64,000 nt of DNA, from positions 1-64,000 of the IMG/VR virus record IMGVR_UViG_3300010162_000393. One strand, written 5' to 3'. The position numbers were made by a program, and so were the translations under genes. The notes below the pieces were generated by a model that saw only the letters and a program-made list of their open reading frames with translations, did not search any database and was not told where the DNA came from. Positions 15,241 through 60,041 of the stretch are shown here, piece by piece; positions within the stretch are counted from its first letter, which is position 1, and the number at the start of each line of letters is the position of its first letter. The DNA is from a virus. Taxonomy: Duplodnaviria; Caudoviricetes.

Positions 15241-15262
15241 TTTAACAAGATGATTTTAAGAA

Positions 15263-15275
15263 TTTTTTCTGATCA
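15263..15275 (-). promoter_or_regulatory. TGATCAGAAAAAA recurrent upstream motif inside the TnpB element
   Basis: Lies between the inverted repeat and the tnpB ATG. Confidence 0.55.
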
Positions 15276-15317
15276 TCATTTATCAGGGGTATTCTTGCGG
15301 AAAATCATTTAGAAATA

Positions 15318-16235: not shown

Positions 16236-16277
16236 TTTTAATTTTTTTATTAAAATAATTTTGATAAAATTTTCTGA

Positions 16278-34371: not shown

Positions 34372-34379
34372 CTATTTAT
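34372..34379 (+). promoter_or_regulatory. CTATTTAT putative late-promoter motif
   Basis: Upstream of the giant fibre gene. Confidence 0.55.
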
Positions 34380-43400: not shown

Positions 43401-46400
43401 GGGGCATGGTCAATAGTAGACGGTGATTTACCAATTGGTTTATCGTTGAATGAAGAAACCGGTGTGATTAGTGGAACACCAACCGAAAACGGAGTATTCC
43501 CAATAACTGTAAAATTTGAAAACGATTGCGGTAGTGATGAAACGGAAATATTAATTGTTATTTGTAAAGAGCCGGAAATCACAACTGAAGAAATGACACC
43601 ATCATTAAATAACCCATATTCCCAAAACATAGAATATACCGGTACGGAACCTCATACATGGGCAATAGTAGGCGGTGACTTACCATTGGGATTAGTATTG
43701 AATGAATTTACAGGTGAAATTAGCGGAACGCCATTAGAATTTGGAGATTTTATAATCACTGTTAAAGCAGAAAATGACTGCGGTGAAGATGAAAAAAGTA
43801 TTTTAATATCTGTGTGCGCCGCACCAACTGTTATAACCACCGGTCTTGAATTTGTGGTGGGTCAAGAAGGTTCAGAAGTGTTAGAATCTTTTGGAACACC
43901 AGGAACATGGTCAATAGAAGATGGTGATTTACCAGAGGGGTTGCTATTAGACCCAGATACTGGTGAAATTAGCGGAACACCTACTGATTTAGATGTGTTT
44001 GGTGAAATAAAAATAACAGTTAAGGTTGAAAATGATTGTGGTGATGACGAAAAAGAAATAACCTTATTCATTTGTAGAGAACCTGAAATCACAACAGAAG
44101 ATATGTATGCTTTCGTAGACGAAGAATTTTCAGAATTTATTGTTTATGAAGGTAGTGAACCACATTCGTGGGAAATAGTAGACGGAGATTTGCCTGATGG
44201 TTTAGATTTAGACCCTGAAACAGGTGAAATTAGTGGAACACCAACCGAGTTTGGAGATTTTATATTCACCGTAAAAGTAGAAAATTACTGCGGTGAAGAT
44301 GAAAAAGAAATTCATATGTTCGTATGTGCTCCACCAGAAATTGAAATAGAAGATGACGAATATGATGCCGTAATGGGAGAAGAGTTCTCAATGCAACTAA
44401 CCGCTTACGGAACAGGAGGTGAGTGGTCAATCGAAGATGGTGATTTACCGGAAGGATTGACCTTGAACTCTGAAACAGGTGAAATTAGTGGAACCCCAAC
44501 AGAGTTTGGGGTTTTTACTATCACTTTTAAAATAGAAAATAATTGTGGTGAACAAAATGTTGAAGTCACTATATATGTTTGTGGAGAACCGGAAATTTCA
44601 ACCGGACAATATATCCACCTTGTACAATTAGAAGAATTTGAATTACAATTAGAATTTACTGGTACTCAACCAGGAACATGGTCTGCCGTTAATTTACCAG
44701 ACGGATTAGTATTATCAGAAGATGGTTTATTAAGCGGAATACCAACAGGACATGAAGATGTTACATCACAAATAACTGTTACCAACGACTGCGGTACAGA
44801 CACAAAATCTTTTTTTTTTGATGTAGATGATGTTCATCGACTTATATTTGAAGTAAAAGATATAAGAACTGGTGATCATATACCTGACGCAACTGTTTTA
44901 TGTCCAGGTCTCGATGCGGTAGAAAATGTTGGATCGGGATTTTACATAACAATATTAAATGACGGTACATATACTTGGAGTGTATCAAAAGAGGGGTATT
45001 ACCCAAAGAGTGGAACGGTCATAGTAGAAGGAGATGAAGCGGAAGATATTCACGTATTGGTAGAGCTTCAACCATTAACACATGAAATTAAATTTATCGT
45101 TACAGATGAAGATAGCGGCGACCCGATTATTGGTGCAACCATTGATGTTGTAAATAAAGAAAGTGGTGATACTGTATCTTTAACAGATAACGGTGACGGA
45201 ACATATACTGCATTTATAATCAACGGTGAATATGATTATGATGTGTCAAAAGAAAAATATATCCCAGCAGACGGAGAATTTGAAATCGACCATGATGATG
45301 AAGTGGTTGAAGTACAACTTAAACTTGCTTGCGTAGTTCCAACTATTACAAGTGGAGATAGTATGTATTTCGTAATGGATGAAGAAGGTTTTGAACTCTT
45401 AGAATATACCGGAACAGAAGGAGAGTGGTCAATAGTTGAAGGTGATTTACCTGACGGATTAGATTTAGATCCTGAAACAGGTGAAGTTAGCGGAACGCCA
45501 ACCGAATATGGAAACTTTATATTCACAGCGAAAATAATAAATGAGTGTGGTGAAGATGAAATAGAAATTGATTTATTCGTTTGTGCACCAGAAACAGAAA
45601 TAATAAGCGATGATGAATATGAGATTGTAAGCGGATCGCCTGTTTCGATACAATTAACCACATCGGCAACATTGGGTACGTGGGAAATTGTAGATGGTGG
45701 TTTACCAGCAGGTTTAACGTTAAGTGAAACTGGTTTGATTAGCGGTACAGCAACTGAAATTGGTGAGTTTTGGTTCACAGTAAAAATGGAGGCACCATGT
45801 TGTGAAGACGAAATGGAAATTTATATGTTTGTCTGCGGAACACCAACTATTACAAGTAGTAATAATATGTACTTTGTAATGGGTGAAGAAGACGACTTTC
45901 AATTAACTGCTACCGGATCAGAAGGTCTTTGGTCTATATCAACAGGTTCATTACCATCTGGATTAACATTAGATGCTGGAACTGGTGAGATTAGCGGAAC
46001 ACCTACTGTATATGGTAACTTTACATTCACGGTTAAAATTGTAAATCCTTGTGGTGAAGCAACTCAAAACGTTAATATGAGCATTTGCGGTAAGCCTGAA
46101 ATTACAAGTGCTAATCTTGGATTTGTAATGGATGAAGTTGGAGCGCGACAATTACAATATGACGGTAGTAGACCAGGAACATGGGCAATTGTAGACGGTG
46201 ATTTACCTGCCGGATTAGCATTGAATGCTTCAACAGGTATAATTATTGGTGTACCAACCGAATTTGGGGTATTTGAAGTAACAGTAAAAGTTACCAATGT
46301 TTGTGATGAAGATACAAAAGAAATTATTATAACGGTTTGCGCATCGCCTGAAATTACAAATGAAAATACAATGGAATTCACAATAGGCGAATCAGGTTCT

Positions 46401-49400
46401 GAACAATTAACATCTTCTGGAACAGCGGGAACTTGGTCAATCGAAACAGGTACATTACCTGCCGGATTGACATTAAACGGAACAACCGGTGTAATTAGTG
46501 GAACACCTACCGAATTTGGTGATAGTTTCAAGTTCACGGTGAAAGTTACTAATCCTTGTGGTAGTGATACAATGGAGATTGATATGTTTGTTTGTGGAAA
46601 ACCAGAAGTTACAACTACCGAAATGGAATTTGTAATGGGGGAAGAGAAAACTGAACACTTAACATTCACAGGGACTACACCAGGAACATGGACAATCGAA
46701 GACGGTGATTTACCGGAAGGGTTGGAATTAGATGAAGAAACTGGTGAAATTAGCGGTACACCGACCGAATTTGGCGAATTTTCAATAAGTGTAAAGGTTG
46801 AAAACCATTGCGGTGACGATATAAAAGAAATTGATATAATAGTATGTGGAGAACCGGAAATTACAAGTAGTAATACTATGGAATTTACAATGGGTGAACC
46901 GGGTTCTGAACAATTAACACATACAGGAACAGAAGGTACATGGTCAATTGTTAGCGGAGAAAGCGATGGAAGTTTTGATGACGACTTTGATGATGACTTC
47001 GATATTGGAGAAGAAGCAAGTGAATTACCAGATGGATTATCATTAAATCCGGAAACCGGTGTTATCAGCGGAACCCCAACTGAATTTGGAAACTTTACAA
47101 TTACGGTTAAAGTTGAAAATGATTGCGGTGAAGATGAAATGGAGGTTGAAATAATAATATGTGGTAAACCGGGAATTATAAGTGACGAATTTGACATTGT
47201 AATGGGTGAACCAGAATCTATCTTATTATTACACGAAGGTAGTGCTCCCGGAACTTGGAATATAGAAGATGGTGATCTACCAGATGGTTTAACATTGAAC
47301 GAGGCAACTGGTGAGATTAGCGGAACAGCAAGTGAATTTGGGGTATTTTCATTCACGGTTAAAGTAGTTAATGCTTGTGGTAGTGATACAAAAGAAATAG
47401 AAATAACTGTTTGTGCGGAACCAGAAATTACAAGTGACGATACGACAGATTTTGTAATGGGAAAACCGGGTTCTAAACAATTAACATATTCAGGTACAGA
47501 AGGTATTTGGTCAATATCAAATGGTATATTACCAAATGGGTTGGCGTTGAATACCATAACAGGTTTAATTAGCGGCACACCTACCGAATTTGGTGATTTT
47601 TCAGTTACAGTAAGAATAGTAAATGATTGTAACGAAGATAGTCAAGTAATTAATATGTTTGTTTGTGGAGAACCAGAAATTACAAGCGACGATGAAATGT
47701 TTTTTGTAATGGATGAAGAAGGTTCTAAACAATTAACATATGTTGGTTCACCTGGTGTTTGGTCAATATCAAATGGTGATTTACCAGAAGGTTTAGATCT
47801 AAACGGAGAAACAGGTTTAATTAGCGGAACAGCGACTGAATTTGGTGAATTTATGTTCACTGTAAAAATAACAAACGACTGTGGGGAAGACGAAATGGAG
47901 ATCGAACTATTCGTTTGTGCAACAGATTCTGAAATAACAAGTGATAATGAGTATGAAATTGAAACCGGAAAAACTGTTTCAATACAATTAACTGCTTCTA
48001 AAACATTAGGTGAGTGGGTAATCGTAGATGGTGGATTACCTATTGGGCTGACATTAAATAAAGAAACCGGTTTGATTAGCGGAACAGCAACAGAATTTGG
48101 TGATTTCAAATTCACTGTAAAAATGGAAACAATTTGCGGTGAAGATGAAATGGAAATTGATATATTTGTTTGCGGTGCACCCGTTATTACAAGTGGTAAT
48201 AGTATGAGTTTCGTAATTGATGAACCCGGTTCTGAAACATTAACATACACAGGAACAGAAGGTACATGGTCAATATCAGTTGGTTCATTACCAAACGGTT
48301 TATCACTAAACACTACAACCGGAGTTGTTAGTGGAACGCCCACTGTATACGGTAACTTTATGTTTACGGTAAAAATAACAAATCCTTGTGGTGAGGCATC
48401 TAGAAATATTAATATGTTCATTTGCGGAACACCTGAAATAACAAGTGGTGATAACATGTTTTTCGTAATGGGCGAGTCCAGTTCAGAAACATTAACATTT
48501 GACGGTAGTAGACCTGGAACATGGGCAATAGAAGAAGGGATATTACCAGGTGGTTTATTGTTAAACGGAACAACTGGTGTGATTACTGGAACTCCGACAG
48601 AGTATGGAGATTATGTTTTCACGGTGAAAATTACAAACCCTTGTGGTTGGGCAACAAAACAAATTAATATGTTGGTGTGCACCGAACCAGAAATAACAAC
48701 AAGTATTAATGAATATGATGGTGTAAAAGGTAATCCTATTTCAATAGAATTAGAATCAATCGGAACAGACGGTGTTTGGTCAGTATCAGCGGGTAAATTA
48801 CCTACAGGATTATTGTTAGATGATGAAACCGGAATAATTAGCGGAACACCAACAGAATTTGGTGACTTCACATTTACAGTAAAAATTACTAACCCTTGTG
48901 GAGTAGATACATTAGAGATAGAATTATTTATTTGTGGTCCAGCGGAAATTATAACAGGTCAGTATTTCCATTTTATACAAGAAGAAGAGGTTGAAGAAAC
49001 ATTAGAGTTTGAAGGAACTCATCCCGGTGTTTGGACAGCAGAAGATTTACCAGAAGGATTAGTGTTGTCAGAAGAAGGTAAATTAAGTGGCTCCCCAACA
49101 GAATTTGGTGAATTTAGAACACAAATAACTGTTAACAATGATTGTGGTGGAGATACAAAAGAATTTTTATTTGAAATAGATGATATTCATCGAATTATAT
49201 TTGAAGTAAAAGATATAAGGACTGGTGATCATATACCTGATGCAACTGTTGTTTGCCCTGATTTAGAAATAGAAAACGTTGGTTATGGTTTTTATGTGAC
49301 AAAATTGGTTGACGGAACGTATGATTGGACAGTTTCAAAAGAAGGTTATTATACTGAAACAGGTACGGTTATTGTAGAAGGAGATGAAGCAGAAGATATT

Positions 49401-51827
49401 CATGTATTAGTCTTACTCCAACCTTTGACACACGAAATTAAATTCATAGTAACAGATGAAGACAGTGGTGAACCGATTATTGGCGCAACCATTGATGTTG
49501 TAAATTCAATAAGTGAACAAGTTGTGTCTTTAACTGATAACGGCGATGGAACATACACGGCGTTTATAGTAAATGGAGATTATGATTATGATGTTTCAAA
49601 AGAAAAATATATACCAAAAGATGGTAGATTCAACATTAATCGTGATGATAAAGTAATTGAAGTACAACTTAAACTTGCATGTGAAATACCTGTTATTACA
49701 AGTAGTAATGAGATATTTTCCCTAATAGGTGAAGAAATTTTCTTACAATTGGAACAAGATGGTACACCGGGTGTATGGACATTGGTTGAGGTAACAGGTT
49801 ATGGTGGTGATTTTAATAACGATTTTAGTAACGATTTCAGTATCGGTAAAAACACTGGTAAATTACCTATTGGGGTAACATTTGATTCTGAAAACGCTAT
49901 TATTGGCGGTATACCAAATGAGTTTGGTATCTTTACCGTTACTGTAAAGTTGGAAAACGACTGTGGTGAAGATGAAATGGAAATTGAAATCTTTGTCTGT
50001 GCTGAATCCGAGATAACAAGTACTAATGAAATTATTAACGAAGAAGAGACTCTTCATACAGTAACACTTCTTACAACTATAGAGCGACGCACAAGTCAAA
50101 TTTTCAACGGAAAGTTGTATATGCCACAAGAACAAGGTACCACCCTTGAAATTTTTGATTTGATAACTGAATCTAGTCGCACGGTAACACTTACAAATAT
50201 GGGGCGATACACAAGTCAAATTTTCAACGGAAAGTTGTATATGCCACGAGCACATCAGTTTCCTACCGGTATCGGCACCCTTGAAATTTTTGATTTGGTA
50301 ACTGAAGTTAATCGCACGGTAACGCTTCCTACAAATAATATGATGCGATACACAAGTCATATTTTCAATGGAAAGTTATATATGCCACAAAGTTGGGGTA
50401 CAACCCTTGAGATTTTTGATTTGATAGAAGAAACTACTCGGACGATAACACTTCCTACAAGTATGGAACGATACACAAGTCAAATTTTCAACGGAAAGTT
50501 ATATATGCCACAAAGTTTGGGTACAACCCTTGAGATCTTTGATTTGGTGACAGAAACTACTCGGACGGTAGCACTTCCTACAAATATGTGGCGAAACACA
50601 AGTCAAATTTTCAATGGAAAGTTATATATGCCACAAAATAACGGTACCACCCTTGAGATTTTTGATTTAACGACAGAAACCACACGCACGGTAACACTCC
50701 CTATAGAAGTGTCTCAGGCAAGTCAAATTTACAATGGAAAGTTATGTATGCCACGTTCTGGTGGTGGAACCACCCTTGTGATTTTTGATTTGATAGAAGA
50801 AACCACTAACATGGTAACACTTTCAACTACAAATACGTTCCTATTAACAAGTCAAATTTACAATGGAAAGTTATATATGCCACAAACCAATGGTACCACC
50901 CTTGTGATTTTTACCACCACAATTATAAAATCAAGTTTATTTGAAATAGAAACAAATAAATATGTTTCAATACAATTAACCGCTTCTGCAACTCCTGGAA
51001 CATGGGTAATTACAGAAGGTGTATTACCACTTGGTTTAGTGTTAAATAATAAAACTGGGTTGATAAGTGGTATTGCAACCGAATTTGGAGAGTTTACATT
51101 TACGGTTGAATTGGAAACACCTTGTAGTATTGATACAACGGAAATTAACATGTTTGTTTGCGGCGCACCTGTTATTACAAGCGGTAATAGTATGTATTTC
51201 GTAATGGGAGAAGGTGACTATAGTGAACAATTAGAATATGTTGGCACAGAAGGTGAATGGTCGGTTTCAACAGGAACATTACCTAGTGGTTTATATTTAA
51301 ATCCAATAACCGGTGTTGTAGATGGTACCCCGAATGTATATGGTAACTTTACTTTCACAATTAAAATTGAAAACCCTTGTGGAGAAGCAACTAAAAACAT
51401 TAGTATGTTCATTTGCGGAAAACCAACCGTTATAACTAATCAGTTAAATTTTGTTAGAGGTGAATTTGGTTCAGAAGAATTAATATTTGCTGGTAGTAGA
51501 CCTGGATATTGGTCAATATTTGGTGGTAGTTTTGACGATGAGGATTTTGATGAATCCTTTGAGACAGAAGACGCTGAATTACCATATGGTTTATCATTAG
51601 ATCCAAATACCGGTATTATTAGCGGAACACCGATTGAAATAGGAAACTATGCAATTCTTGTTAAAGTTGTTAATCCTTGTGGTGAAGCAACAAAAGAAAT
51701 TAATATATTAATATGCGATGAATTTGATATAACAAATGATAATCAATATGATATTATAAAAGGTGATCCTATTTTAATACAATTAACAACTACTTTTGGT
51801 AAAAAAGATGAACCAATAGCACATTAA
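34437..51827 (+). CDS. Giant (5796 aa) putative-Ig (He_PIG-like) repeat protein with carboxypeptidase-regulatory-like domains and an inserted beta-propeller; probable virion fibre
   Basis: Roughly 60 units of about 81 aa, consensus C-x-x-P-x-I...W-S-I-x-x-G-x-LP-x-GL-x-L...G-x-ISGTPT...F-x-V-x-V-x-NxCG. Also I-x-DA-x-V...NG-x-Y...V-x-KEGY domains. No signal peptide seen. Confidence 0.9.
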   Translation: MASKFSVNRHATQKYSVYSRVVNDISPVVVASTAKSPNDIIFTITFYVTDFNDKKIPDASVSIVSHDFKIINHFDGSYKVIDVPNGKYEYVVEKTGFVAVEGVVTVSGSDLEVHVKLCEVPSKIVNGNLNFVMNEEMYQKFGYVGSTPGTWSVVKGELPNGITFDHDGILSGTPRAFGKFEVTVMVENSCGSVTKDLLIQVCAVPEITTVDFVLPHKQTVSEQLSFYGSEPATWSVEDGLLPKGLLLNGQTGVISGTTKDYGDFDVTFKVANACGEDVKELKITICAKPKITSNDDTKFTMGEEGSVQLTSYGNPGVWTLYSGNLPNGLTLSEDGILSGTPTTFGKFDFTVKVENACGEDRQFMKVWICGKPEVVSGDMSFVMGQPVSHQLQFSGSRPGTWSIVEGVLPKGLTLNAETGVISGTPKEFGESSFTVMVVNPCGEATKVVNASLCAKPTIMSCCSGCDTNFVKGQEASMQYEASGSAGTWSVLGGILPTGLTLDPNTGIISGTPTVGGYYEFTLKFTNPCGEVEKCMSLFVCAEPSIKGSGEISFAMGQPGSHELHFEGSRPGIWSVSEGVLPAGVSLNAELGVISGTPTEFGDFDFTLKVTNHCGESTKEMNISICGQPQITSAGNINILTGESVNIQLESNGTPGVWSAEYGLPEGLSLSADGLISGEPTESGNFNVLITLTNDCGEASRNFNIFVCAEPEILTGDFDVLQNTPMSKQLQFAGSRPGTWSIEEGSLPWELKMDSKGVVSGTPKKVGSFSVLLKVKNYCGEVTKPIVVTSKKTYKATFIVKMEDGTMVPDASVVVGGFIVTNNNNGTYESYLTDGAHGFTVTKEGYEVEEGVVEIDGEDVVVTIILCVFPEILNGDMSFVMGVAKVVQLESTGSAGEWSIQGDLPEGLTFNATTGVISGTPEEFGEFEITLIMTNPCGSVSKDIEIVICGAPEITSSDEIEFVKGEKSSYELEFFGTDPATWEVSEGSLPAGLTLDAATGEIKGTPTVFGDFVFTVKVTNECGFDEQEISMFICAEPEVTSSGTLSFVMTEEHSEQLTSSGTPGVWSIVTGNLPDGLSLNVATGVISGTATEFGDFTVVVRVVNECGEATKETVISVCGLPVVTSGDMEFVMNEPVSHQLTAEGTEGTWRLLSGKLPLGLTLDSETGIISGTPTEFGDFSIVLRFTNVCGVARKILNIFVCAKPQITSANNINFALSDEASFQLEYTGTPGTWSVVDGDLPEGVTLKPTTGVISGTPVEAGNYYVTLKIENACGDATKSVNIFVCAEPVIIVSNIEFLQNVYVSKQLDFTGSRPGKWEVVSGSFPAGITLATNGVVSGIPTEMGNFEVVVKVKNPCGEDTKEISLFSCAKPVIINDNNIAFVKGEESAVQIEAIGTEGTWSIVSGALPNGLSLDPSGEISGTPTEGGTFKVTVQLENPCGVTTKMMVINVCAKPIIVSGDLDFVQNTPVSHQLRFIGSRPGKWSISAGNLPAGLSLDPNTGIISGSTHEFGEYNLTISVENECGVANKDIIMSTCSKPGIVSGDMNFVINEEGSSLLENSGTAGTWSIISGSLPNGLELDEITGEISGTPTVSGIYTFTVKVVNSCGEATKVVNLYVCAKPVISTGDLSFVMGEAVSQKLQYTGTRPGEWSIEGELPNGLTFNAETETISGIPSEFGEFEVILIVKNPCGEASKTIEIVICAKPVITSDHADFVMGEESSVELEGNGTEGVWTVDSGVLPEGLSLSSDGILSGTPAVSGNHSFTVKFKNACGESIKTILIYICAKPTIVSGDLNIVMGTPMSQQLIFSGTRPGTWSIESGNLPTGITLSEDGVLSGTTTEFGDFDVVIRVENPCGIALKPITIDTCAKPTITNNSDLTFVMNEYSSDELTASGTAGVWSVIGGSVLPDGLELDEETGIISGTPTVSGTFNIVVKIENHCGEDIRSIAIQICAKPTITSGELDFEVGVHGSETLTFTGSRPGTWSIVEGALPAGLTLNGATGVISGTPTEFGEFFVEVKVENHCGEETKEIEIFVCSKPAVTSGSNMNFVMGEAGSAQLTSSGTEGEWEIFAGELPAGLELDEETGLIYGNPTVFGNFAFTVMVVNPCGSATQEINMFICGKPAVISGDMEFVMGEESEEQLMFSGSRPGTWSVVEGDLPEGLTLDAETGVISGTPTEFGDIVFTVKVENPCGEATKEITAVVCGKPVVTSGTNMTFVMNEHSSEQLTSSGTEGIWSIDDGELPMGLILDPETGVISGTPLVFGNFVFTVKVENPCGEATEEINMFICGKPAVLNSTHPNFVMGEENELQLLFSGSRPGTWSIEEGELPEGVTLDPETGIISGIPTEFGDFEFTVKVENPCGEATKDFEMFVCAKPEIISPDKYDSVFDEEILFQLENTGTEGIWEITEGELPLGLELDEEGLIVGTPRVFGHFKFKVMVVNPCGEDEMEIDMFICKLPEIVSEEFDFVLGEESSEELTFIGSRPGSWSVVEGDLPAGLVLDSVEGTISGTATEKGDFNITLKVINPCGEDTKEIKIFVCEEPEVTSGGYFEFVMGNEVELQLEHTGTDGEWSLVEGDYLPEGLELNSETGLISGIATEFGNFYFTVKLTNYCGEAYKVIQIFMCGLPEILTESMGFVMGEEDDHQIVATGSMPGTWSIIEGVLPNSFVLNTSTGIISGTLTEHGEFPITVKLVNSCGETTKEIIITVCQTPTITSENDLEFVMGERVTFQLTNDGTAGEWEIIDGELPEGLRLNPLTGVISGRAREFGNFTFTVKIDNHCGSDTQVIEMFMCGLPVILHGNMNFQINEPGSDTFIGDGTPGTWSIVGGGLLPTGLTLNPTTGEVSGTPTVAGHFELVVKLENDCGSIMRDVVIFVCAPPEIIGEIDDFYVMGSEISQEFQFSGSRPGEWSVVGGDLPEGVTFDPETGILSGIPTEHGEFIFTVKVENPCGEATKEINIFICLEPEIITGGLEFDFNEYGEFELEVIGSEGAWSIVDGDLPIGLSLNEETGVISGTPTENGVFPITVKFENDCGSDETEILIVICKEPEITTEEMTPSLNNPYSQNIEYTGTEPHTWAIVGGDLPLGLVLNEFTGEISGTPLEFGDFIITVKAENDCGEDEKSILISVCAAPTVITTGLEFVVGQEGSEVLESFGTPGTWSIEDGDLPEGLLLDPDTGEISGTPTDLDVFGEIKITVKVENDCGDDEKEITLFICREPEITTEDMYAFVDEEFSEFIVYEGSEPHSWEIVDGDLPDGLDLDPETGEISGTPTEFGDFIFTVKVENYCGEDEKEIHMFVCAPPEIEIEDDEYDAVMGEEFSMQLTAYGTGGEWSIEDGDLPEGLTLNSETGEISGTPTEFGVFTITFKIENNCGEQNVEVTIYVCGEPEISTGQYIHLVQLEEFELQLEFTGTQPGTWSAVNLPDGLVLSEDGLLSGIPTGHEDVTSQITVTNDCGTDTKSFFFDVDDVHRLIFEVKDIRTGDHIPDATVLCPGLDAVENVGSGFYITILNDGTYTWSVSKEGYYPKSGTVIVEGDEAEDIHVLVELQPLTHEIKFIVTDEDSGDPIIGATIDVVNKESGDTVSLTDNGDGTYTAFIINGEYDYDVSKEKYIPADGEFEIDHDDEVVEVQLKLACVVPTITSGDSMYFVMDEEGFELLEYTGTEGEWSIVEGDLPDGLDLDPETGEVSGTPTEYGNFIFTAKIINECGEDEIEIDLFVCAPETEIISDDEYEIVSGSPVSIQLTTSATLGTWEIVDGGLPAGLTLSETGLISGTATEIGEFWFTVKMEAPCCEDEMEIYMFVCGTPTITSSNNMYFVMGEEDDFQLTATGSEGLWSISTGSLPSGLTLDAGTGEISGTPTVYGNFTFTVKIVNPCGEATQNVNMSICGKPEITSANLGFVMDEVGARQLQYDGSRPGTWAIVDGDLPAGLALNASTGIIIGVPTEFGVFEVTVKVTNVCDEDTKEIIITVCASPEITNENTMEFTIGESGSEQLTSSGTAGTWSIETGTLPAGLTLNGTTGVISGTPTEFGDSFKFTVKVTNPCGSDTMEIDMFVCGKPEVTTTEMEFVMGEEKTEHLTFTGTTPGTWTIEDGDLPEGLELDEETGEISGTPTEFGEFSISVKVENHCGDDIKEIDIIVCGEPEITSSNTMEFTMGEPGSEQLTHTGTEGTWSIVSGESDGSFDDDFDDDFDIGEEASELPDGLSLNPETGVISGTPTEFGNFTITVKVENDCGEDEMEVEIIICGKPGIISDEFDIVMGEPESILLLHEGSAPGTWNIEDGDLPDGLTLNEATGEISGTASEFGVFSFTVKVVNACGSDTKEIEITVCAEPEITSDDTTDFVMGKPGSKQLTYSGTEGIWSISNGILPNGLALNTITGLISGTPTEFGDFSVTVRIVNDCNEDSQVINMFVCGEPEITSDDEMFFVMDEEGSKQLTYVGSPGVWSISNGDLPEGLDLNGETGLISGTATEFGEFMFTVKITNDCGEDEMEIELFVCATDSEITSDNEYEIETGKTVSIQLTASKTLGEWVIVDGGLPIGLTLNKETGLISGTATEFGDFKFTVKMETICGEDEMEIDIFVCGAPVITSGNSMSFVIDEPGSETLTYTGTEGTWSISVGSLPNGLSLNTTTGVVSGTPTVYGNFMFTVKITNPCGEASRNINMFICGTPEITSGDNMFFVMGESSSETLTFDGSRPGTWAIEEGILPGGLLLNGTTGVITGTPTEYGDYVFTVKITNPCGWATKQINMLVCTEPEITTSINEYDGVKGNPISIELESIGTDGVWSVSAGKLPTGLLLDDETGIISGTPTEFGDFTFTVKITNPCGVDTLEIELFICGPAEIITGQYFHFIQEEEVEETLEFEGTHPGVWTAEDLPEGLVLSEEGKLSGSPTEFGEFRTQITVNNDCGGDTKEFLFEIDDIHRIIFEVKDIRTGDHIPDATVVCPDLEIENVGYGFYVTKLVDGTYDWTVSKEGYYTETGTVIVEGDEAEDIHVLVLLQPLTHEIKFIVTDEDSGEPIIGATIDVVNSISEQVVSLTDNGDGTYTAFIVNGDYDYDVSKEKYIPKDGRFNINRDDKVIEVQLKLACEIPVITSSNEIFSLIGEEIFLQLEQDGTPGVWTLVEVTGYGGDFNNDFSNDFSIGKNTGKLPIGVTFDSENAIIGGIPNEFGIFTVTVKLENDCGEDEMEIEIFVCAESEITSTNEIINEEETLHTVTLLTTIERRTSQIFNGKLYMPQEQGTTLEIFDLITESSRTVTLTNMGRYTSQIFNGKLYMPRAHQFPTGIGTLEIFDLVTEVNRTVTLPTNNMMRYTSHIFNGKLYMPQSWGTTLEIFDLIEETTRTITLPTSMERYTSQIFNGKLYMPQSLGTTLEIFDLVTETTRTVALPTNMWRNTSQIFNGKLYMPQNNGTTLEIFDLTTETTRTVTLPIEVSQASQIYNGKLCMPRSGGGTTLVIFDLIEETTNMVTLSTTNTFLLTSQIYNGKLYMPQTNGTTLVIFTTTIIKSSLFEIETNKYVSIQLTASATPGTWVITEGVLPLGLVLNNKTGLISGIATEFGEFTFTVELETPCSIDTTEINMFVCGAPVITSGNSMYFVMGEGDYSEQLEYVGTEGEWSVSTGTLPSGLYLNPITGVVDGTPNVYGNFTFTIKIENPCGEATKNISMFICGKPTVITNQLNFVRGEFGSEELIFAGSRPGYWSIFGGSFDDEDFDESFETEDAELPYGLSLDPNTGIISGTPIEIGNYAILVKVVNPCGEATKEINILICDEFDITNDNQYDIIKGDPILIQLTTTFGKKDEPIAH
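50050..50920 (+). repeat. Seven repeats of about 39 aa (about 117 bp), a predicted 7-bladed beta-propeller
   Basis: Unit TSQIFNGKLYMPQxxGTTLEIFDLxxETTRTVTLP repeated seven times, highly similar at the DNA level. Confidence 0.85.
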
Positions 51828-51830
51828 TAT

Positions 51831-51838
51831 CTATTTAT
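51831..51838 (+). promoter_or_regulatory. CTATTTAT motif in the 47-nt gap that splits an Ig domain
   Basis: Starts 4 nt after the giant gene's stop and precedes the ATG at 51875. Confidence 0.55.
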
Positions 51839-51874
51839 GAATAAAAGAAAAATAATATTTAAATATAAAAAATT

Positions 51875-54664
51875 ATGGATTCAAAATTAATAAACGAATG
51901 GACAATTATATACGGTAGATTACCAAATGGTTTGTTGTTGGATAAGGAAACCGGTGAAATAAGCGGTATCCCAACCGAAACAGGTAACTTCACATTTACT
52001 GTAAAGGTTGTAAATCTTTGTGGAGAAGAAACAATGGAGATAGAATTGTTTGTTTGCGCAATGCCTGAAATTACGACCGCACCATATTTTCATTTTATAC
52101 AATTAGAAGAAATTGAAGAAAAAATATTAGAGTTTGAAGGAACTCAACCAGGAGTATGGTCTGCTGTTAATTTGCCAGACGGGTTAATATTATCGGAAGA
52201 CGGAAAACTAACAGGAACACCAACCGGATATGGTGAAATAAAATCAGAAATAACTGTTACCAATGCCTGTGGAGCAGATACTGTAGAATTTCTTTTTGAT
52301 TTAGATGATGTTCATCAAATTATATTTGAAGTAAAAGATAAACGAACCGGTGAACATATACCTGACGCAACAGTTATTTGCCCTGATTTGGAAATAGAAA
52401 ATCATGATAATGGTTTTTATACAACAATACTGAATGACGGGGAGCATCCTTGGCATGTTTCAAAAGAAGGGTATTTTCCAGAAGAAGGGACCGTTGTAGT
52501 AGAAGGAGATGAGGGGGAAGATATTTATGTGTTGGTGGAACTTCAACCAACAACATATGAATTAAAGTTTATTGTTACATATGAAGATACAGGAAATCCG
52601 GTAACAGATGCTACTATTGGGGTTATAAATTCTGAAACTGAACAAATTATTTCTTTAACAAATAAAGGTGGTGGTGTGTACTCTACATTTGTTGAAAATG
52701 GTAAATATGATTGGGGCGTTTCAAAAGAAAGTTATATTCCAGTAGATGGTGACGTTACTATTAATTATGCGGACGAGGTAATTGAGGTTGCGCTTATCCA
52801 AACTACAAAAGAATTAATATTTAAGGTAATAAATAATGGTGGTAGTTTTAGTGAACTACATTTTGATAATTCTTTTGATGTTGGCGGAAGGTTAATTAAT
52901 GATGCGACGGTTGTTTCTGGTAATTCACTGATTGATTTAGATATAACAAACAACAATGACGGTACTTATAAAACAGAAGTGTTTTCTGGTACATATAACT
53001 ATGCAATATCAAAAGAGGGATTCATAACCGAAAAAGGTAGTGTAGTGGTGCAAAGTGAAAATGTTGAAGTTTCTGTCCCACTTTCTGAAATAGTTGGTAT
53101 TATAACAGTAAATGCGACTGTTGCCCTGAGTAATGCTACTTGTAGTGCAACAATATCAGCATCTCCTGTATTATCTGGTTATACATATGATTGGTCTTTA
53201 TGGAATATGGATACAGAAACTTTAATTTCACAATCTCTTAATCAAACAGGTACTACATGGAATATGGGAGCAATGAGTAGTGGAAATCAAAATGTACCTC
53301 TTGAAGTACGCTGTACTGTAAAAGAACCTGTTTCGTCCGGCACCGCTTCGTTTGTTTGTACCCCACTTCCTTTGTGGAGAGTAACACAATTAAACCCTAC
53401 TTTGACGGTAAATAGAGCAAATATAATAACAGGTGAAACATTTATTGCCACATGTACAAACACCGTCGGAATGTCGCCGTTTGAATATGTATTTGAGGTG
53501 ATTAACCGCAGTAACGGTGAAGTAATACACGGTCCAATAAATCAAGATGTGTTAAATATATTTGAATATACACCAGCGACATTAGGAAATTATGGTGTTC
53601 GTTGTAGAGTGAATGTAAAAAATATACCTGTTGAATTTTATGATCAAACAGATGGGTTAGCAACAAGACTCGCTACCGTTAGTGGTCAAACTGATAACAT
53701 TGCTAGGGTTGATGTATACGATCCTATTGTTGCGACAATATCAACACCAAAATTAGGTCTGATGGAAGATGAACCGTTTGTTGTAACATGTACTTGGTCT
53801 GGTGGTTTAAGTCCATTTAGTTTTATTTGGAGTATGTGGCGAAAAGATGGTAGTACTTATACACAAATTGGAGCAAATACCACTACTACATCTTTTCAAT
53901 ATGGTAATGGTACATCAGCTTTATTTCCTACTCAATTTGCAACGCTCTTTACAAGTGGTGAAGCGAGTGGAATTAAAGAGGTTGAATTTAGATGTAGAGT
54001 AGAGAGTACTTCAACTTTATTTAACCCTCGTTTATCATGTGATGTGGTTCCAATTGTTGTTCAAATAGAACGACCACCATTTCAGTTTGTTTCAATAACA
54101 TTGGAAGGTACTGAACCTGGAGATGGTGACGATGGGAAAAGTCCTAGTCATTTTTTTGGAACAACCATAAAGGCAACTATTAATTTTACTGGTGGTACAC
54201 TACCAATAACACGTTACCAAAGAAGATTATCAACCCTTACAAATACAAATGGAAATTTAATTGCACTTGGTGATATTACACCGCTATCACCAACATTTGA
54301 GTTTATATGGCCGGTGTCAAACGGATCAACAAGTGGTAATGTTGATCATGTTACCTTGTATTGTACAGTAAGAGATAATAAGAATAGAGAAATAAATGGT
54401 AGTATAATAATATATAATTATATGTTTGGTAAACTATCTGGTATTATCACTTACAATCAGAAAAAACCAACAGGTGATGAAACGCTACCATACGTTATAA
54501 CACCATATGGTGGTGTTGGAACAGTTTATTATAGTTGGAAAATATACGATAATGAAACCAATGAATTAGTTGCAACGATTCCATCAATTGGTACCCAAAC
54601 CGGTACAACTATTAATTATGCAATTCCCTCAAGTCTTGCTCATTATGATGCTTTGATAAAATAA
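51875..54664 (+). CDS. Ig-repeat fibre continuation protein (929 aa)
   Basis: Begins with the second half of an Ig repeat. Then carboxypeptidase-regulatory-like domains and PKD/Ig-like units (GG-x-x-P...Y-x-W...V-R-C-x-V). Confidence 0.88.
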   Translation: MDSKLINEWTIIYGRLPNGLLLDKETGEISGIPTETGNFTFTVKVVNLCGEETMEIELFVCAMPEITTAPYFHFIQLEEIEEKILEFEGTQPGVWSAVNLPDGLILSEDGKLTGTPTGYGEIKSEITVTNACGADTVEFLFDLDDVHQIIFEVKDKRTGEHIPDATVICPDLEIENHDNGFYTTILNDGEHPWHVSKEGYFPEEGTVVVEGDEGEDIYVLVELQPTTYELKFIVTYEDTGNPVTDATIGVINSETEQIISLTNKGGGVYSTFVENGKYDWGVSKESYIPVDGDVTINYADEVIEVALIQTTKELIFKVINNGGSFSELHFDNSFDVGGRLINDATVVSGNSLIDLDITNNNDGTYKTEVFSGTYNYAISKEGFITEKGSVVVQSENVEVSVPLSEIVGIITVNATVALSNATCSATISASPVLSGYTYDWSLWNMDTETLISQSLNQTGTTWNMGAMSSGNQNVPLEVRCTVKEPVSSGTASFVCTPLPLWRVTQLNPTLTVNRANIITGETFIATCTNTVGMSPFEYVFEVINRSNGEVIHGPINQDVLNIFEYTPATLGNYGVRCRVNVKNIPVEFYDQTDGLATRLATVSGQTDNIARVDVYDPIVATISTPKLGLMEDEPFVVTCTWSGGLSPFSFIWSMWRKDGSTYTQIGANTTTTSFQYGNGTSALFPTQFATLFTSGEASGIKEVEFRCRVESTSTLFNPRLSCDVVPIVVQIERPPFQFVSITLEGTEPGDGDDGKSPSHFFGTTIKATINFTGGTLPITRYQRRLSTLTNTNGNLIALGDITPLSPTFEFIWPVSNGSTSGNVDHVTLYCTVRDNKNREINGSIIIYNYMFGKLSGIITYNQKKPTGDETLPYVITPYGGVGTVYYSWKIYDNETNELVATIPSIGTQTGTTINYAIPSSLAHYDALIK

Positions 54665-54695
54665 TATAAAAATAATATAAAAAAATAATAATAAA

Positions 54696-57600
54696 ATGGC
54701 ACATTATCCATACAATGATTTACGTTTAGAATGTACAATAACCAATAGCGGAAATTCAAATGAATTTGTTGCAAAAGAGTGGGTTACACCAGCCGTACCG
54801 GTTGCAGCATGGGAGGGGACAAAAGAACCTATGTTAACTGGTTTAGCATTTCCCAAACCAACAAATTTGAGATATGCTAATATAACCAACCATGTCTATT
54901 CGCCAACAAGAAATACCGCATATTATTATAATAACCAAGTTATTCAATATTCAAGTGTATTAAGTCCAATTCGGTTAGTATATATATTGAAAATTACCGA
55001 TTTTATTATGACAAGTTGTACGGTTGGGTGTTTGCACCCAGACGGGGTAATATTTTTATGTAATAATAACACTAGTTCTTCAAGAGCAATATTAGTAAAG
55101 GAAATAAGTGAAGAACCATTTGCTGATTATGAAACAATACATAATTATCCGGGTGCTTTACCGGATACTAATGGTAATAGGAGACTTCATTTTGTTCATT
55201 ATTATGATAATAAATTCTATGCGCAAAATGGTGTAGTATATGATATGAATTATAACGAAATTGCTACCCATTTAGTTGATAACACAGCAAAAGTAGCACC
55301 CGTTAATCCAAAACTTCAACCAAATAGATGGTGGATTGGTACAGCTACTGCAAATGGTGGAACAAAATCGTGTTATATTTCAAATAATGATAGTGCGAAT
55401 AGTTATACAAATTCTTTATCTGTTTCCCATTTTTATCGTGATGTTGAAATTAATTCAACAACAACTGATCCAGCATCAATATCGTTTAATTGGAAAGGTG
55501 TTGGTGATACGACTTGGGGTTATTTACAGTTTCGTGTTATAGAAACTAGTGAAACGCCGGTACCAGGTACACTACCTTCAGGATCCTCTCTTGTTGGTAA
55601 TTTATTTAATAGTTCAGTGTGGATAAATAGAGTTGTTACTCTAGGTGAAATGTCTGGTGTAAAACGTATTGTGTTTACATGGCGTAATACCGCAAATACT
55701 ACTTACCAACCACCTGCTGCCGTAGATAACATTATTATTAAGACGAATGTTGGTCCAGATATTATTGAGGATTTTGAGAGCGGTGATGGTACAACACTTG
55801 ATAATTGGGTGTTTCCGGATCCTCTAGTTATATTACCACCAAATATATCATATTACGGTTTTAATACAGAAAGAGATATATTATATGGTTATAATGCTAA
55901 TCTATTGAATACAAATAATGGGGATGGAAAATTTCTTTGTAATATTCGTATTAATAATACCGGAAATTTAATTCTAGCTGTTTATGATGTTGTAAGTAAT
56001 AATGTTAAAGTGTTAAATAGCATAGTAACAAATAATATATCATATTTTGGTTATTATTTTGCGAATAATTGTGTTGTTGTATTAATGCATGATATTTTGG
56101 ACTCCCAAACACCAAGAATGGCAAAGGTTAAAATATATGATTTAATTTCCGATAATATAACGGAATTAGATATTAAACGATCAACCACTTTCACAACTTT
56201 TTATGTTAGACCAACATTTGATAAAAGATATGTAAACATTGCAACAAATCTTACTGTTGCTACTACACCACGCATATATGAAACATATTTTACATTTGTT
56301 GATACTATTGATAAGCGAATAATAACCAGAAACGGATCATATTCTTATAATAATAATTCTGGTAGTAACGATACTGCTCTTTCTTTTCATATGACTTATG
56401 CGTATGCTTTTATTGAATATGAAGGTGAATTTGTTGGTATCCATACAAAATTGAGTGATGGTAATGCGCTACATTCATTATGTGATGTTCCGGTAGTTCT
56501 TGGTGATAGAATATATTCATACGGACATACTTCAGCAAACCATCCTGTTTATTTTGTGGATAAAACGAATCAATTAACATTATTATCAACAAATGATAAT
56601 ACATATCAAGAACTTAATCCAACAACCACACCTGTATGGTTTTTACCTACTTCTAATCTTGTTTATTTACAATATAATAATAATATATATAAAATAGGTA
56701 TTTCTAATTTTTATGTTGGAACTAATAATTATAGCGTTTCGTTGGTTGTTTCGGTTTATGATGTTGCTTCTTATTCATGGAGTGTTGTTAATAAATTGAA
56801 TTTATCTAGTGGTAATAATAATAGTGATTTTAGAATTATTCGCGCATGTTTTGATGAAGATTATGTGTATTTATTAGTAAACTATGCAAATAGTACCGCA
56901 TTAAGAATAATTATATTTAATAAAATAACATACGAGTTAATATCAAATACTGATGCTCAACGTAATCAACCATTTTATATTAGTTTTAATAATACTCAAA
57001 CTGCTCTTTGGAATTTTAGTAGTAGATATGGAAATGGTAGTAGTAATTTGCGACCAACAATATCAACATCTAATATGTTTTATAACAATTTTTATCTTTT
57101 CTTTGACATTAGTTATACACCAGTCCCATTTATGATATATGATATGAAAACACGTATAATTCATCAAATGATGTGGGATGGTTGTAATAGTACAACCTCT
57201 GGACTATCTATACCAAGTAATACGGCTAGTAATTATACAATTACATTCGTTGAGTTGGATAATAATAAAATATTAGCTTCAGCGTTTTTTAATAATAATT
57301 TTAGTTTAATATTAGAACATGATTTATCTACAAGATCAACTATTTTGTTAAACCATTCAAACTGGAATGATAGTACTATGGGGCGTGAAAGAAAACTTGT
57401 ACTTGGTAATATTTATAGGGTTGCTGATCGTATATATATTAATACCACAGCAACCACAGGTGGTGTGGCATTTGATCTTGATTATAACCCTGTTTCTTTT
57501 AGTGGTATTACACCAACTCAAGATTATTCAGATTATTATCGTCTTAATTATAATAACATTACACCTCATTATTTTGTAAATTCAGATAACACAATAATAA

Positions 57601-60008
57601 AAGATAATGATGTTATAACTGTAACAAATATTGATTCCGGATATGTTTTAAGAACACATCTTTATGTGGATGGTATGTCATGTGTGTTATGTGGAAGAAC
57701 TAACGATAAACCAAGATTATATCTTTTAAATGAAGATTTTTCAGTTACATTTTTACGTGAATATAATGAAAGTAGTATTTCTCATACCAGTAATAATAAT
57801 ATTATTAATAGAAATGTTTGGAATATTGGAAAAAATGTTTTATATTCCGGTAGGATACCGAATACATTGCCTTTGAAAAGGATACCTTCAAACGTTTCCT
57901 CAATGAGTTATATCAACCCAATGAGAAATCATGATTCATTTTATCTTGTTTCATTCGCTAATGGTGGTATTATGAAACAAACTGGTCCAACAACATTTAC
58001 ATTAACTACTGCGCCTGTTGAATATACATATAGCGCATTTGGTATAAGCACAAATACAATACTTTTACGTGGAAGATATGCTGGTACTAGTAACGATTTG
58101 TGGTATAAATGGGATGAATTTAACACTCCTGCATGGGTTCAATGTGGTGGTACTAATCCATCTTCTCCAACACTTGTTACACAAAATACTTGTACTGATA
58201 GGATTTATATTATGAATAGTAGTCAAATATTTAAATATGATCGTAATACAAATACTATTAATTTATTTCAAACTTTGGGTGGTTTTATTGCTACTGATTT
58301 GTATATACAACATAAAGATCACAAAGAAGGTAGAATGTATTTTGTTAGAAATAATATACTATATAGAGAATCAGATGATTTATTATCAATAGTAGAAGTG
58401 TTAAGAAGCGAAACTAATATTGTTAATGTTATTATTTGTCCCGGAGATTTGTTGTATTATGCTAATACAAGGGATGTGTTTTCATTTAATGGAGTAACAC
58501 AAAATAGAATTGGTACAACAGGGTCAACGACTAATATTGTTGATATAGCAATTGATGGTGATGGAGTGATTTGGGGTATAACAGGTAGCACAACATTTAA
58601 TATTAAAAATGGTGTTATAAGTGAAAGTATTACAATGTGTAGATATATAACTGTATCAAGTCAAACTAATCAAAGAGAATTATCAGCGACTTATGGTGCA
58701 CTAACAAGACTTATAATTGAACCAGAACATAATAGAAGGTTTATGTTTAATACTAATTATCAATTTTATTGGTCTGATTTATACAATATTAATATAACAC
58801 GTACTCAACGAACTATTGATACCGGAAGGATAAGATTATTTTTATATAATAATTATATATTTAGTATTAGTGATACTGAAGTAGTGGTTTGGTTCGTAGA
58901 TGTCTACGGGAATCTCGTGTCTTCAGAATTTGATTGGCAAATGGGTAACGATAAAAGACATCTCGTTTGTTATAAACCGTTTGCGGTTGGTGCTGATACA
59001 CATATATGGGATAACCCTAACCCAAGTGGTGTAATTGAAAATATGCACACCAGTGATATAACTGATGTGATAACCGACCAGTATTCTGGTTGGATGCAAA
59101 TAGCTGGTAATTGGGAATCTTTTAATGCAATTGTACCTAGAAAGTCTAATGAATATTCATATAATAGTAGACCAAGATTTTGGGATCAAAATATTAAAAT
59201 TAATAATATGGAAGTTGCTAGCAGAGTTTCGATATGGACAGGAACTGAAAGTATATATTTACCACTTAATATTATTGCTGTAACAAATAAACTTGTTGGT
59301 TCAGGAAATGATTTAAGGATTTCATTGACTGTAAAGGGAAGTGGGTATATGTACCTTAGTTGGGGTGTAGATTCACCAATACAAGTAGAATTGACCGGTT
59401 CTGAACAAACATTCGATTATCAATACACAGCAAAAAATTTTCATACAATAACTATCTATGCAAATGATGTTACATACTTTAAATGTACTAAAGCTAAATT
59501 AATGCAGGTGGATATATCGAAAAATAAAACATTAACACGTATAGATGTTCAGGATAATTTATTATGGGAATATGAATTAAATCATATTATTGAACATCTA
59601 CCACCAGTAACAGGAGGAACAATTAAAATTTGTGATAATCCTGCTTCAGATACTTGTGATAGATTTAGTGTTATTGAAAAAGGATGGGATTTTGATGCAT
59701 ATCAGGATAATATTGATATCACAGAAGTCAATAATTCTATTGTAAATATTTATGATACACATGGTGATATAGATGATAATGAAAATAATGTTAAAACCAT
59801 TGAACAAGCAAGAGCAAGTGTTATGCGCATTCTTGCAACCACATATCCTGTGGATTTTAATGATGTGAAACCAACGTTAGAAGACATTGCGTTTGTTCCT
59901 GCCGGAGGTGGTGTAAACGGTTATTATGATTTTTATATGAAACTCAATAAGTGTGAGGGAGCAGAACAGATCGTAGGACCATTAAGATTAGATATTTGGG
60001 CAGTTTAA
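54696..60008 (+). CDS. Large N/T/Y-rich beta-structure protein (1770 aa), probable distal receptor-binding component
   Basis: Contains a WWIGTA...PPAAVDNI beta-sandwich, propeller-like strands and a short C-terminal LRR-like segment (VDISKNKTLTRIDVQDNLL). Confidence 0.8.
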   Translation: MAHYPYNDLRLECTITNSGNSNEFVAKEWVTPAVPVAAWEGTKEPMLTGLAFPKPTNLRYANITNHVYSPTRNTAYYYNNQVIQYSSVLSPIRLVYILKITDFIMTSCTVGCLHPDGVIFLCNNNTSSSRAILVKEISEEPFADYETIHNYPGALPDTNGNRRLHFVHYYDNKFYAQNGVVYDMNYNEIATHLVDNTAKVAPVNPKLQPNRWWIGTATANGGTKSCYISNNDSANSYTNSLSVSHFYRDVEINSTTTDPASISFNWKGVGDTTWGYLQFRVIETSETPVPGTLPSGSSLVGNLFNSSVWINRVVTLGEMSGVKRIVFTWRNTANTTYQPPAAVDNIIIKTNVGPDIIEDFESGDGTTLDNWVFPDPLVILPPNISYYGFNTERDILYGYNANLLNTNNGDGKFLCNIRINNTGNLILAVYDVVSNNVKVLNSIVTNNISYFGYYFANNCVVVLMHDILDSQTPRMAKVKIYDLISDNITELDIKRSTTFTTFYVRPTFDKRYVNIATNLTVATTPRIYETYFTFVDTIDKRIITRNGSYSYNNNSGSNDTALSFHMTYAYAFIEYEGEFVGIHTKLSDGNALHSLCDVPVVLGDRIYSYGHTSANHPVYFVDKTNQLTLLSTNDNTYQELNPTTTPVWFLPTSNLVYLQYNNNIYKIGISNFYVGTNNYSVSLVVSVYDVASYSWSVVNKLNLSSGNNNSDFRIIRACFDEDYVYLLVNYANSTALRIIIFNKITYELISNTDAQRNQPFYISFNNTQTALWNFSSRYGNGSSNLRPTISTSNMFYNNFYLFFDISYTPVPFMIYDMKTRIIHQMMWDGCNSTTSGLSIPSNTASNYTITFVELDNNKILASAFFNNNFSLILEHDLSTRSTILLNHSNWNDSTMGRERKLVLGNIYRVADRIYINTTATTGGVAFDLDYNPVSFSGITPTQDYSDYYRLNYNNITPHYFVNSDNTIIKDNDVITVTNIDSGYVLRTHLYVDGMSCVLCGRTNDKPRLYLLNEDFSVTFLREYNESSISHTSNNNIINRNVWNIGKNVLYSGRIPNTLPLKRIPSNVSSMSYINPMRNHDSFYLVSFANGGIMKQTGPTTFTLTTAPVEYTYSAFGISTNTILLRGRYAGTSNDLWYKWDEFNTPAWVQCGGTNPSSPTLVTQNTCTDRIYIMNSSQIFKYDRNTNTINLFQTLGGFIATDLYIQHKDHKEGRMYFVRNNILYRESDDLLSIVEVLRSETNIVNVIICPGDLLYYANTRDVFSFNGVTQNRIGTTGSTTNIVDIAIDGDGVIWGITGSTTFNIKNGVISESITMCRYITVSSQTNQRELSATYGALTRLIIEPEHNRRFMFNTNYQFYWSDLYNINITRTQRTIDTGRIRLFLYNNYIFSISDTEVVVWFVDVYGNLVSSEFDWQMGNDKRHLVCYKPFAVGADTHIWDNPNPSGVIENMHTSDITDVITDQYSGWMQIAGNWESFNAIVPRKSNEYSYNSRPRFWDQNIKINNMEVASRVSIWTGTESIYLPLNIIAVTNKLVGSGNDLRISLTVKGSGYMYLSWGVDSPIQVELTGSEQTFDYQYTAKNFHTITIYANDVTYFKCTKAKLMQVDISKNKTLTRIDVQDNLLWEYELNHIIEHLPPVTGGTIKICDNPASDTCDRFSVIEKGWDFDAYQDNIDITEVNNSIVNIYDTHGDIDDNENNVKTIEQARASVMRILATTYPVDFNDVKPTLEDIAFVPAGGGVNGYYDFYMKLNKCEGAEQIVGPLRLDIWAV

Positions 60009-60041
60009 ATTTAAAAATAATACAATAAAAATATAATAAAA

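Follow-up and report, generated by a model that had tools for sequence, protein, structure and literature searches.

An old gene boundary within an immunoglobulin-like domain, and a candidate means of joining giant proteins end to end, in a jumbo phage from termite-gut metagenomes

This analysis concerns two adjacent genes, referred to as P0001 and P0002, of a tailed virus (Duplodnaviria; Caudoviricetes) represented by IMG/VR record IMGVR_UViG_3300010162_000393. The stretch of DNA analysed, called the window, is the first 64 kb (64,000 nucleotides, nt) of this 136,864-bp record, the estimated completeness of which is 38%. Both genes belong to a cluster of four very large plus-strand genes with short gaps between them, and the boundary that separates them (54664/54696, junction 2) is a real and old one, which on sequence grounds cuts an immunoglobulin (Ig)-like beta-sandwich in its E-F loop. 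The best-supported reading, itself considered probable, is that gene fission divided the domain and that complementation of its two parts joins P0001 to P0002. This reading is preferred because the cut is conserved in a related phage (the relative), the two halves are more conserved than the intact domains, and a prediction of their complex gave weak support (0.50, with controls at 0.00).

The divided domain

The features on either side of junction 2 are as follows.

51875..54664, plus strand: P0001, the middle protein of 929 amino acids (aa), described by domain alignment, hidden Markov model (HMM) and Pfam
54425..54646, plus strand: truncated fifth Ig-like domain, P0001 residues 851-924, strands A-E
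54647..54664, plus strand: five-codon tail of P0001 and its TAA; in the relative, an equally long tail, ETQLI, with an aligned TAA
54665..54695, plus strand: junction 2 gap of 31 nt, A-rich, unstructured and without the CTATTTAT motif (see below)
54696..54794, plus strand: N-terminal 33 residues of P0002, with a second AHY, F strand LRLECTI and G strand EFVAKEWV
54696..60008, plus strand: P0002, the distal protein of 1770 aa, without a Pfam family and with an inserted beta-sandwich module

P0001 starts with the back part of a He_PIG domain (strands C-G), followed by a whole He_PIG-type repeat, CarboxypepD_reg-like domains and then Ig-like domains, four of them intact and a fifth truncated. Each of the four intact domains carries a strand of the L-x-V/F-x-C-x-V type, and the strands LEVRCTVK, YGVRCRVN, VEFRCRVE and VTLYCTVR that the initial annotation had listed for the earlier domains are all present. 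In domains A-C, strands B and F each carry a Cys and strand C a Trp, which is the Ig pattern. The best matches of the intact-domain profile in the PDB were Ig C2 domains (CAR Ig domain D2), weak at an E-value of about 0.2, and an Atlas model of one intact domain superposed on Y_Y_Y-type Ig-like domains with template modelling (TM) scores of 0.75-0.80; the Pfam scan assigned the Ig-like repeats to no family at threshold. The intact repeats of P0001 have the characters of an Ig-like beta-sandwich, C2-set / Y_Y_Y-like.

The fifth domain and the N-terminus of P0002 were aligned, using MAFFT, with eight intact domains from this phage and the relative. In this alignment the fifth domain is confined to strands A-E, and the start of P0002 falls on the F strand (x-L-x-C-T) and the G strand. 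Likewise, an HMM of the eight intact domains matches P0001 residues 857-917 over profile positions 3-62 of 108 only, so that the proposal that the last domain of P0001 lacks its final strand was borne out by both methods. When the N-terminus of P0002 was appended by script, the HMM match lengthened through the F strand LRLECTI. Ranked against the other N-termini of open reading frames (ORFs) of at least 100 aa in this fused test, the true partner came third of 118 in the window and first of 118 in the relative.

The truncated domain ends in the E-F loop at the tripeptide AHY (GCT CAT TAT, 54638-54646), after which P0001 runs to its C-terminus, ...INYAIPSSLAHYDALIK*, and the TAA stop at 54662-54664. 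P0002 begins at 54696 with MAHYPYNDLRLECTITNS, in which the codons GCA CAT TAT (54699-54707) specify AHY once more. The tripeptide was thus confirmed on both sides of the break, as had been claimed; the copies are GCTCATTAT (54638-54646) and GCACATTAT (54699-54707). The two copies lie 61 nt apart, and P0001 and P0002 are therefore in different frames. In coding frames, AHY occurs only three times across the 137-kb record, and P0002 is alone among the 119 ORFs of at least 100 aa in carrying the F-strand pattern within its first 20 residues; given both rarities, the pattern of a divided domain goes beyond chance.

Conservation of the boundary in a second phage

The only relative found was a complete phage of 367,155 bp with terminal repeats, together with an identical 116-kb fragment. 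Protein and DNA-pattern scans of IMG/VR, a metagenome scan, a word-indexed protein search and an exhaustive HMMER search covering 1.84 billion representatives yielded no further relatives, and the matches to a degenerate DNA pattern for MAHYPY(K/N) beyond the 367-kb phage and its fragment were at chance level. Cluster members of P0001 and P0002 comprised a single other one, a contig-end fragment of P0002. Gene synteny of the relative is identical (DnaB and SbcC, followed by the giant genes and, after them, the gene for the tail sheath), and protein identity between the two phages ranges from 36% (P0001 part) to 52% (N-terminus of P0002).

At junction 2 of the relative, an A-rich gap of 32 nt separates the end of the upstream gene, ...NWRIPKTLADFETQLI*, from the start of the following one, MAHYPYKNLKFECTLSD. 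The DNA alignment is co-linear through the five-codon tail, the TAA and the gap, with ATGGCACATTATCCATA identical, and the start of P0002, MAHYPY, is the same in both phages (ATG GCA CAT TAT CCA TA in the relative). This shared, co-linear architecture means that the cut predates the divergence of the two phages. The exact duplication of AHY, which the initial annotation had taken as part of the pattern, is not conserved, since the upstream copy in the relative reads ADF and only the downstream copy is AHY; the copies are offset by 61 nt in the window and by 62 nt in the relative. Most simply, the repeat is an overlap left over from the splitting event, kept in this phage and drifted to ADF in the other; it probably represents a relic and not a signal.

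Between the two phages, the divided domain is 45% identical over strands A-E and 48% over strands F-G, compared with 41, 32, 28 and 34% for the four intact domains. The half-domains are therefore constrained at least as strongly as whole domains and are unlikely to be dead remnants. The alternating hydrophobic pattern of the F strand has also been retained (LRLECTI in the window, LKFECTL in the relative).

Predicted association of the halves and the proposed mechanism

The initial annotation had suggested that the complex of the two termini be predicted. P0001 residues 846-929 with P0002 residues 1-48 scored 0.50, compared with 0.00 for the best of three controls, a result in the class that the tool names 'weak support'. 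The mark concerned was reached by 58 of 80 solved complexes and by 2 of 110 mismatched pairs, and among scores of 0.60 or lower that passed it were only seven of those 80 complexes and both of the passing mismatches. The partner chain had predicted local distance difference test (pLDDT) values of 55-57, and agreement between the runs extended to at least 75% of contacts; the P0001 chain reached a pLDDT of 64-66 with its true partner, compared with 40 with unrelated ones. Neither phage has a Cys in strand B of the divided domain, which makes a disulfide across junction 2 unlikely. The modelling lends weak support to the predicted binding between the two halves.

In the proposed mechanism, P0001 would be made with an incomplete last domain of five strands, and P0002 would be translated separately from its own ATG after a short A-rich leader, probably on the same transcript. 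The first ~30 residues of P0002 would form the missing F-G hairpin, which would insert into the open domain of P0001 and so fasten the two proteins end to end without a covalent bond. At the preceding gene junction (junction 1), the polarity would be opposite, the C-terminal A-B hairpin of the giant protein completing the He_PIG domain at the start of P0001. Together, the genes of the cluster would build one very long modular virion appendage.

Several results weigh against this mechanism. According to the tool, a guess placed in its 'weak support' class is more often wrong than right unless it was already likely. Single-chain AlphaFold2 (AF2) models were too poor to help, with a mean pLDDT of 47 for P0002 residues 1-200 (below 50 throughout residues 1-106) and of 45 for P0001 residues 737-929; the latter has seven strands in domain D and five in the last domain, as a split would require, at a confidence too low to count. 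The HMM completion test was modest, as the third rank in the window indicates. A fused form of junction 2 was not found in the searches for relatives described above, and with one independent relative the conservation rests on two lineages. Finally, the Pfam scan gave the cluster proteins no match to a tail-fibre family at threshold.

The case for a virion component comes from the position of the cluster near the tail sheath gene and from the CTATTTAT motif, which it shares with the sheath and major-head-protein genes. Taken with the domain types, these features suggest a virion fibre as the putative product of the cluster.

Alternative explanations

The alternative that survives best, although unlikely, is that the halves of the split genes stay apart, so that each protein works on its own and the half-domains serve as flexible linkers or are left over from the split. 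Junction 1 demonstrates that recent splits made by insertion can arise, the prediction of binding is weak, and the single-chain models gave neither half a confident fold, all of which would agree with it. However, the halves at junction 2 have persisted despite divergence down to 36% identity, they are 45-48% identical where intact domains are 28-41%, the F strand has kept its hydrophobic alternation, and decay or loss would be the expected fate of a five-strand Ig fragment whose core is exposed.

It is also conceivable, but distinctly improbable, that the hairpin of P0002 or the open domain of P0001 is completed by another virion protein, or by strand swapping between copies of the same chain. 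The pairing of the two neighbours rests on adjacency, conserved synteny and a weak complex score, and as the record is only about 38% complete, further candidates could exist. On the other side, the N-terminal F-strand pattern is unique to the P0002 ORF in the 137-kb record and the unrelated-partner controls scored 0.00.

Programmed bypassing of the T4 gene 60 type, which along with splicing was the fallback of the initial annotation, is very unlikely, as is frameshifting. In bypassing, ribosomes leaving TAT 54644-54646 would land on TAT 54705-54707, and the single fusion protein would be recognisable by a junction-spanning peptide ...SSLAHYPYNDLR. The bypass gap of T4 gene 60 is 50 nt, and the window resembles it in having a coding gap of ~50-60 nt between matching codons, here GCN CAT TAT codons 61 nt apart, which gives a gap of 58 nt. 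Unlike gene 60, there is no stop next to the take-off codon and no hairpin, the downstream ATG is conserved, and the matching codons are absent from the relative. There, GCT GAT TTT stands upstream and GCA CAT TAT downstream, so that only the Ala codons could match; the stop comes five codons past the would-be take-off site in both phages, and the length of the tail and position of its stop are conserved, which suggests that the tail is translated. RNA fold z-scores (+2.3, +0.3 and 0.0) reveal no hairpin, and in both phages an ATG immediately precedes the landing site after a conserved A-rich leader. Simple frameshifting could not fuse the genes, since the upstream stop (54662-54664) comes before 54681, where the downstream frame first opens. 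Trans-splicing by a split intein is unlikely as well, no intein or Hint family having been found in either protein and both flanks aligning to the Ig-like domain.

That the junctions are assembly or sequencing artefacts, or a recent inactivating mutation (pseudogene), is barely credible: the genes are giant and repetitive in error-prone AT-rich DNA, and junction 1 is absent from the relative, but Logan contigs from four termite-gut runs in three studies reproduce positions 51600-54900, with both junctions, at zero differences, junction 2 recurs in a second phage assembled from other samples, and junction 1, far from being a bare stop or frameshift, comes with a promoter motif and a proper start. 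Some of the four runs may be source samples of the record, so that the agreement speaks for reproducibility and not for full independence.

A younger split upstream

The gene before P0001 is separated from it by a gap with a different history.

34437..51827, plus strand: giant gene, 5796 aa, with He_PIG-type Ig repeats
51828..51874, plus strand: 47-nt gap of junction 1, which contains CTATTTAT (51831-51838) and an A-rich leader

The giant protein ends with strands A-B of an extra repeat (about 51726-51824), followed by KKDEPIAH and TAA. The relative has one continuous open frame of 5202 aa in place of the giant gene and P0001. The window has about 95 extra bases at this place, including the 47-nt gap, and these account for about 14 residues (KKDEPIAH, stop, MDSKLIN) in the B-C loop of a He_PIG domain. 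Correspondingly, Pfam He_PIG matches P0001 residues 14-48 at profile positions 46-82 of 96, that is, over its back half only. From motif counts, the chance of an oriented copy of CTATTTAT within a 47-nt gap is about 0.003. Since the relative is unsplit and the extra bases with CTATTTAT fall in the B-C loop, the sequence comparison indicates that junction 1 is a gene fission of recent date, in which a domain loop gained both a start codon and the promoter motif of the structural genes.

The initial annotation saw in the two junctions a repeated strategy for chaining polypeptides. The splitting of domains and the chaining of their proteins stand as the best-supported reading, but because junction 1 is absent from the relative, the two splits do not follow one repeated design and differ in age and origin. 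The giant protein does end in AH (...EPIAH*), as noted at the outset, yet this end belongs to junction 1, is absent from the relative, and drops out of the pattern. The octamer GCACATTA occurs on the forward strand of the 137-kb record only twice, at 51820-51827 and 54699-54706, which correspond to the very end of the giant gene (GCA CAT TAA) and the start of P0002 (GCA CAT TAT). The terminal AH and the octamer at both junctions are probably a coincidence.

Two origins for the junction DNA were tried and rejected. A copying of the junction 1 cassette from junction 2 would rest on a local alignment score of 34, which lies within the range for other gene starts (top scores 42, 39 and 38), and a mobile element did not fit, the junction DNA not being repeated elsewhere in the 137-kb record. 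The junction 1 gap also holds the start of a 17-codon mini-ORF (51837-51890, ATG at 51837), which overlaps the start of P0001 in another frame.

A more far-reaching account, which takes both junctions together and is held to be rather doubtful, is that cassettes of stop, promoter or leader, and start, inserted in Ig loops, split the fibre genes of jumbo phages. Junction 1 would then be a fresh case and the AHY overlap an old footprint, and AHYDALIK at the end of P0001 could act as a temporary self-cap that is displaced by the hairpin, with the same small likelihood. If the displacement of a self-cap is true, it would be a case of donor-strand exchange in a virus, and would supply natural tag-and-dock pairs and swappable distal modules.

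Putative promoter motifs and translation

The motif found in the junction 1 gap lies 23-65 nt upstream, in the correct orientation, of at least a dozen gene starts in the record. Genes preceded by it include those for the tail sheath, the major-head-protein operon, a 1244-aa virion-type protein and the giant gene itself.

34372..34379, plus strand: CTATTTAT motif, 58 nt upstream of the giant gene start; in the same place in the relative
34372, 51831 and 23498 in the window: copies of CTATTTAT
71016 (minus strand), 77052 (minus strand), 77072, 77495, 85715, 98762, 102287, 104129 and 117110 in the whole record (G000): further copies of CTATTTAT

The placement of CTATTTAT suggests a promoter of structural or late genes. 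The reverse complement of the motif, TATAAATAG, resembles the T4 late promoter TATAAATA. A second motif, GATGATCAGAAAAWTTT, was observed about 30-40 nt before several minus-strand starts (14002-17192 in the window; 83657, 107670 and 109956 in the record), among them those of a transposase-like gene and of three tandem genes, each about 300 aa long. This motif may belong to a different promoter class.

The starts of P0001 and P0002 are typical of the phage, with an A-rich leader, no Shine-Dalgarno sequence, and the first ATG after an in-frame stop. Around the junctions, the RNA is unstructured, and at junction 2, to which the z-score of +2.3 belongs, it is less structured than shuffled sequence. 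A terminator scan found no terminator at either junction, and a sigma-70 scan returned fewer promoter-like sites than in shuffled sequence. From the start signals, the unstructured RNA and the lack of terminators at the junctions, P0001, P0002 and the leucine-rich repeat (LRR) protein that follows them are probably translated separately from one transcript, which would begin at the junction 1 motif. In both phages, the distal genes are spaced by gaps of 31-35 nt (54665-54695 and 60009-60041 in the window; L003 3969-4000 and L032 13866-13900 in the relative), a regularity that could be compatible with coupled translation.

Genome context

The window encodes DNA polymerase, RNA ligase, large terminase, SbcC-like and DnaB-like proteins, and the genes for the tail sheath protein and major head protein sit farther along the 136,864-bp record. 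On this gene content, including tail sheath, major head protein, polymerase and terminase, the source virus is assigned to the myovirus-type jumbo phages. The fourth large gene of the cluster follows P0002.

60042-66728, plus strand: BspA-type LRR protein, 2228 aa

All sequencing runs that contain the stretch are termite-gut metagenomes, and no RNA data set is listed among them. The beta-sandwich module inserted in P0002 (~55310-55830, residues ~207-380) is missing from the relative and is 35-49% identical to modules of large surface proteins of Flavobacterium and Bacteroidales that carry type IX secretion system (T9SS) sorting domains. This identity suggests a Bacteroidota host and a recent exchange of the module.

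Comparison with known systems

In the Lactococcus phage Tuc2009, BppA domain 2 has a beta-sheet completed by the C-terminal hairpin of BppU, and the composite domain that results is titin-like (PMC4742702). The arrangement proposed here is similar in that a terminal two-strand hairpin completes a domain of another protein, although here it comes from sequence and prediction. Both sequence features of a donor hairpin were found, namely a domain in P0001 without its edge strands and a terminus of P0002 that carries the missing hairpin. The polarity of junction 1 is that of Tuc2009, with a C-terminal hairpin given to the next protein, while at junction 2 it is reversed and an N-terminal hairpin is donated. 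Unlike in Tuc2009, the cut domain belongs to a series of intact homologous repeats, and it is for this reason that its split origin is visible. The setting also differs, with giant fibre-like chains of a jumbo myovirus in place of a siphovirus baseplate, and no sequence relation to BppU or BppA is claimed. Full-text literature searches on strand complementation in phage fibres found no paper with this principle; the Tuc2009 baseplate is a solved single example.

In chaperone-usher pili (Fim, Pap, Caf1), with their dedicated periplasmic chaperone and outer-membrane usher, an incomplete Ig-like fold receives what it lacks from the N-terminal extension of the following subunit, and the subunits are linked head to tail without covalent bonds. 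At the level of sequence, junction 2 follows the same donor-strand principle, an incomplete C-terminal edge being completed by the N-terminus of the next protein. It differs in that two strands (F and G) would be donated instead of one, that different giant proteins take the place of repeating pilins, and that assembly would be cytoplasmic, would involve neither chaperone nor usher and would be directed by a phage gene cluster; the comparison is of working principle, and membership is not claimed. Engineered split Ig-like domains of the SpyTag/SpyCatcher type lock by way of an isopeptide bond. There, too, a short terminal-strand peptide re-associates with the remainder of its domain and joins two proteins, as is predicted here, but junction 2 gives no sign of an isopeptide bond.

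Fractured genes with split inteins, the neighbouring products of which are rejoined after translation, are described from phage metagenomes (PMC2677866). Compared with such fractured genes, junction 2 is different, having no intein halves and being flanked on both sides of the break by an Ig-like domain.

Significance

If the two halves bind, this phage would carry an appendage of more than 10,000 residues made from separately translated pieces, with each joint a rebuilt Ig domain. Such a construction, if true, would ease translation, allow separate promoters and separate control of stoichiometry, and make the distal parts exchangeable. The two junctions would capture the process at two ages, one an old and conserved cut, the other a recent insertion of a promoter motif into a gene that is still whole in the relative. 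Joints of this kind are candidate natural pairs of docking peptide and domain, and they may account for truncated domains at gene ends that annotation pipelines have taken as errors.

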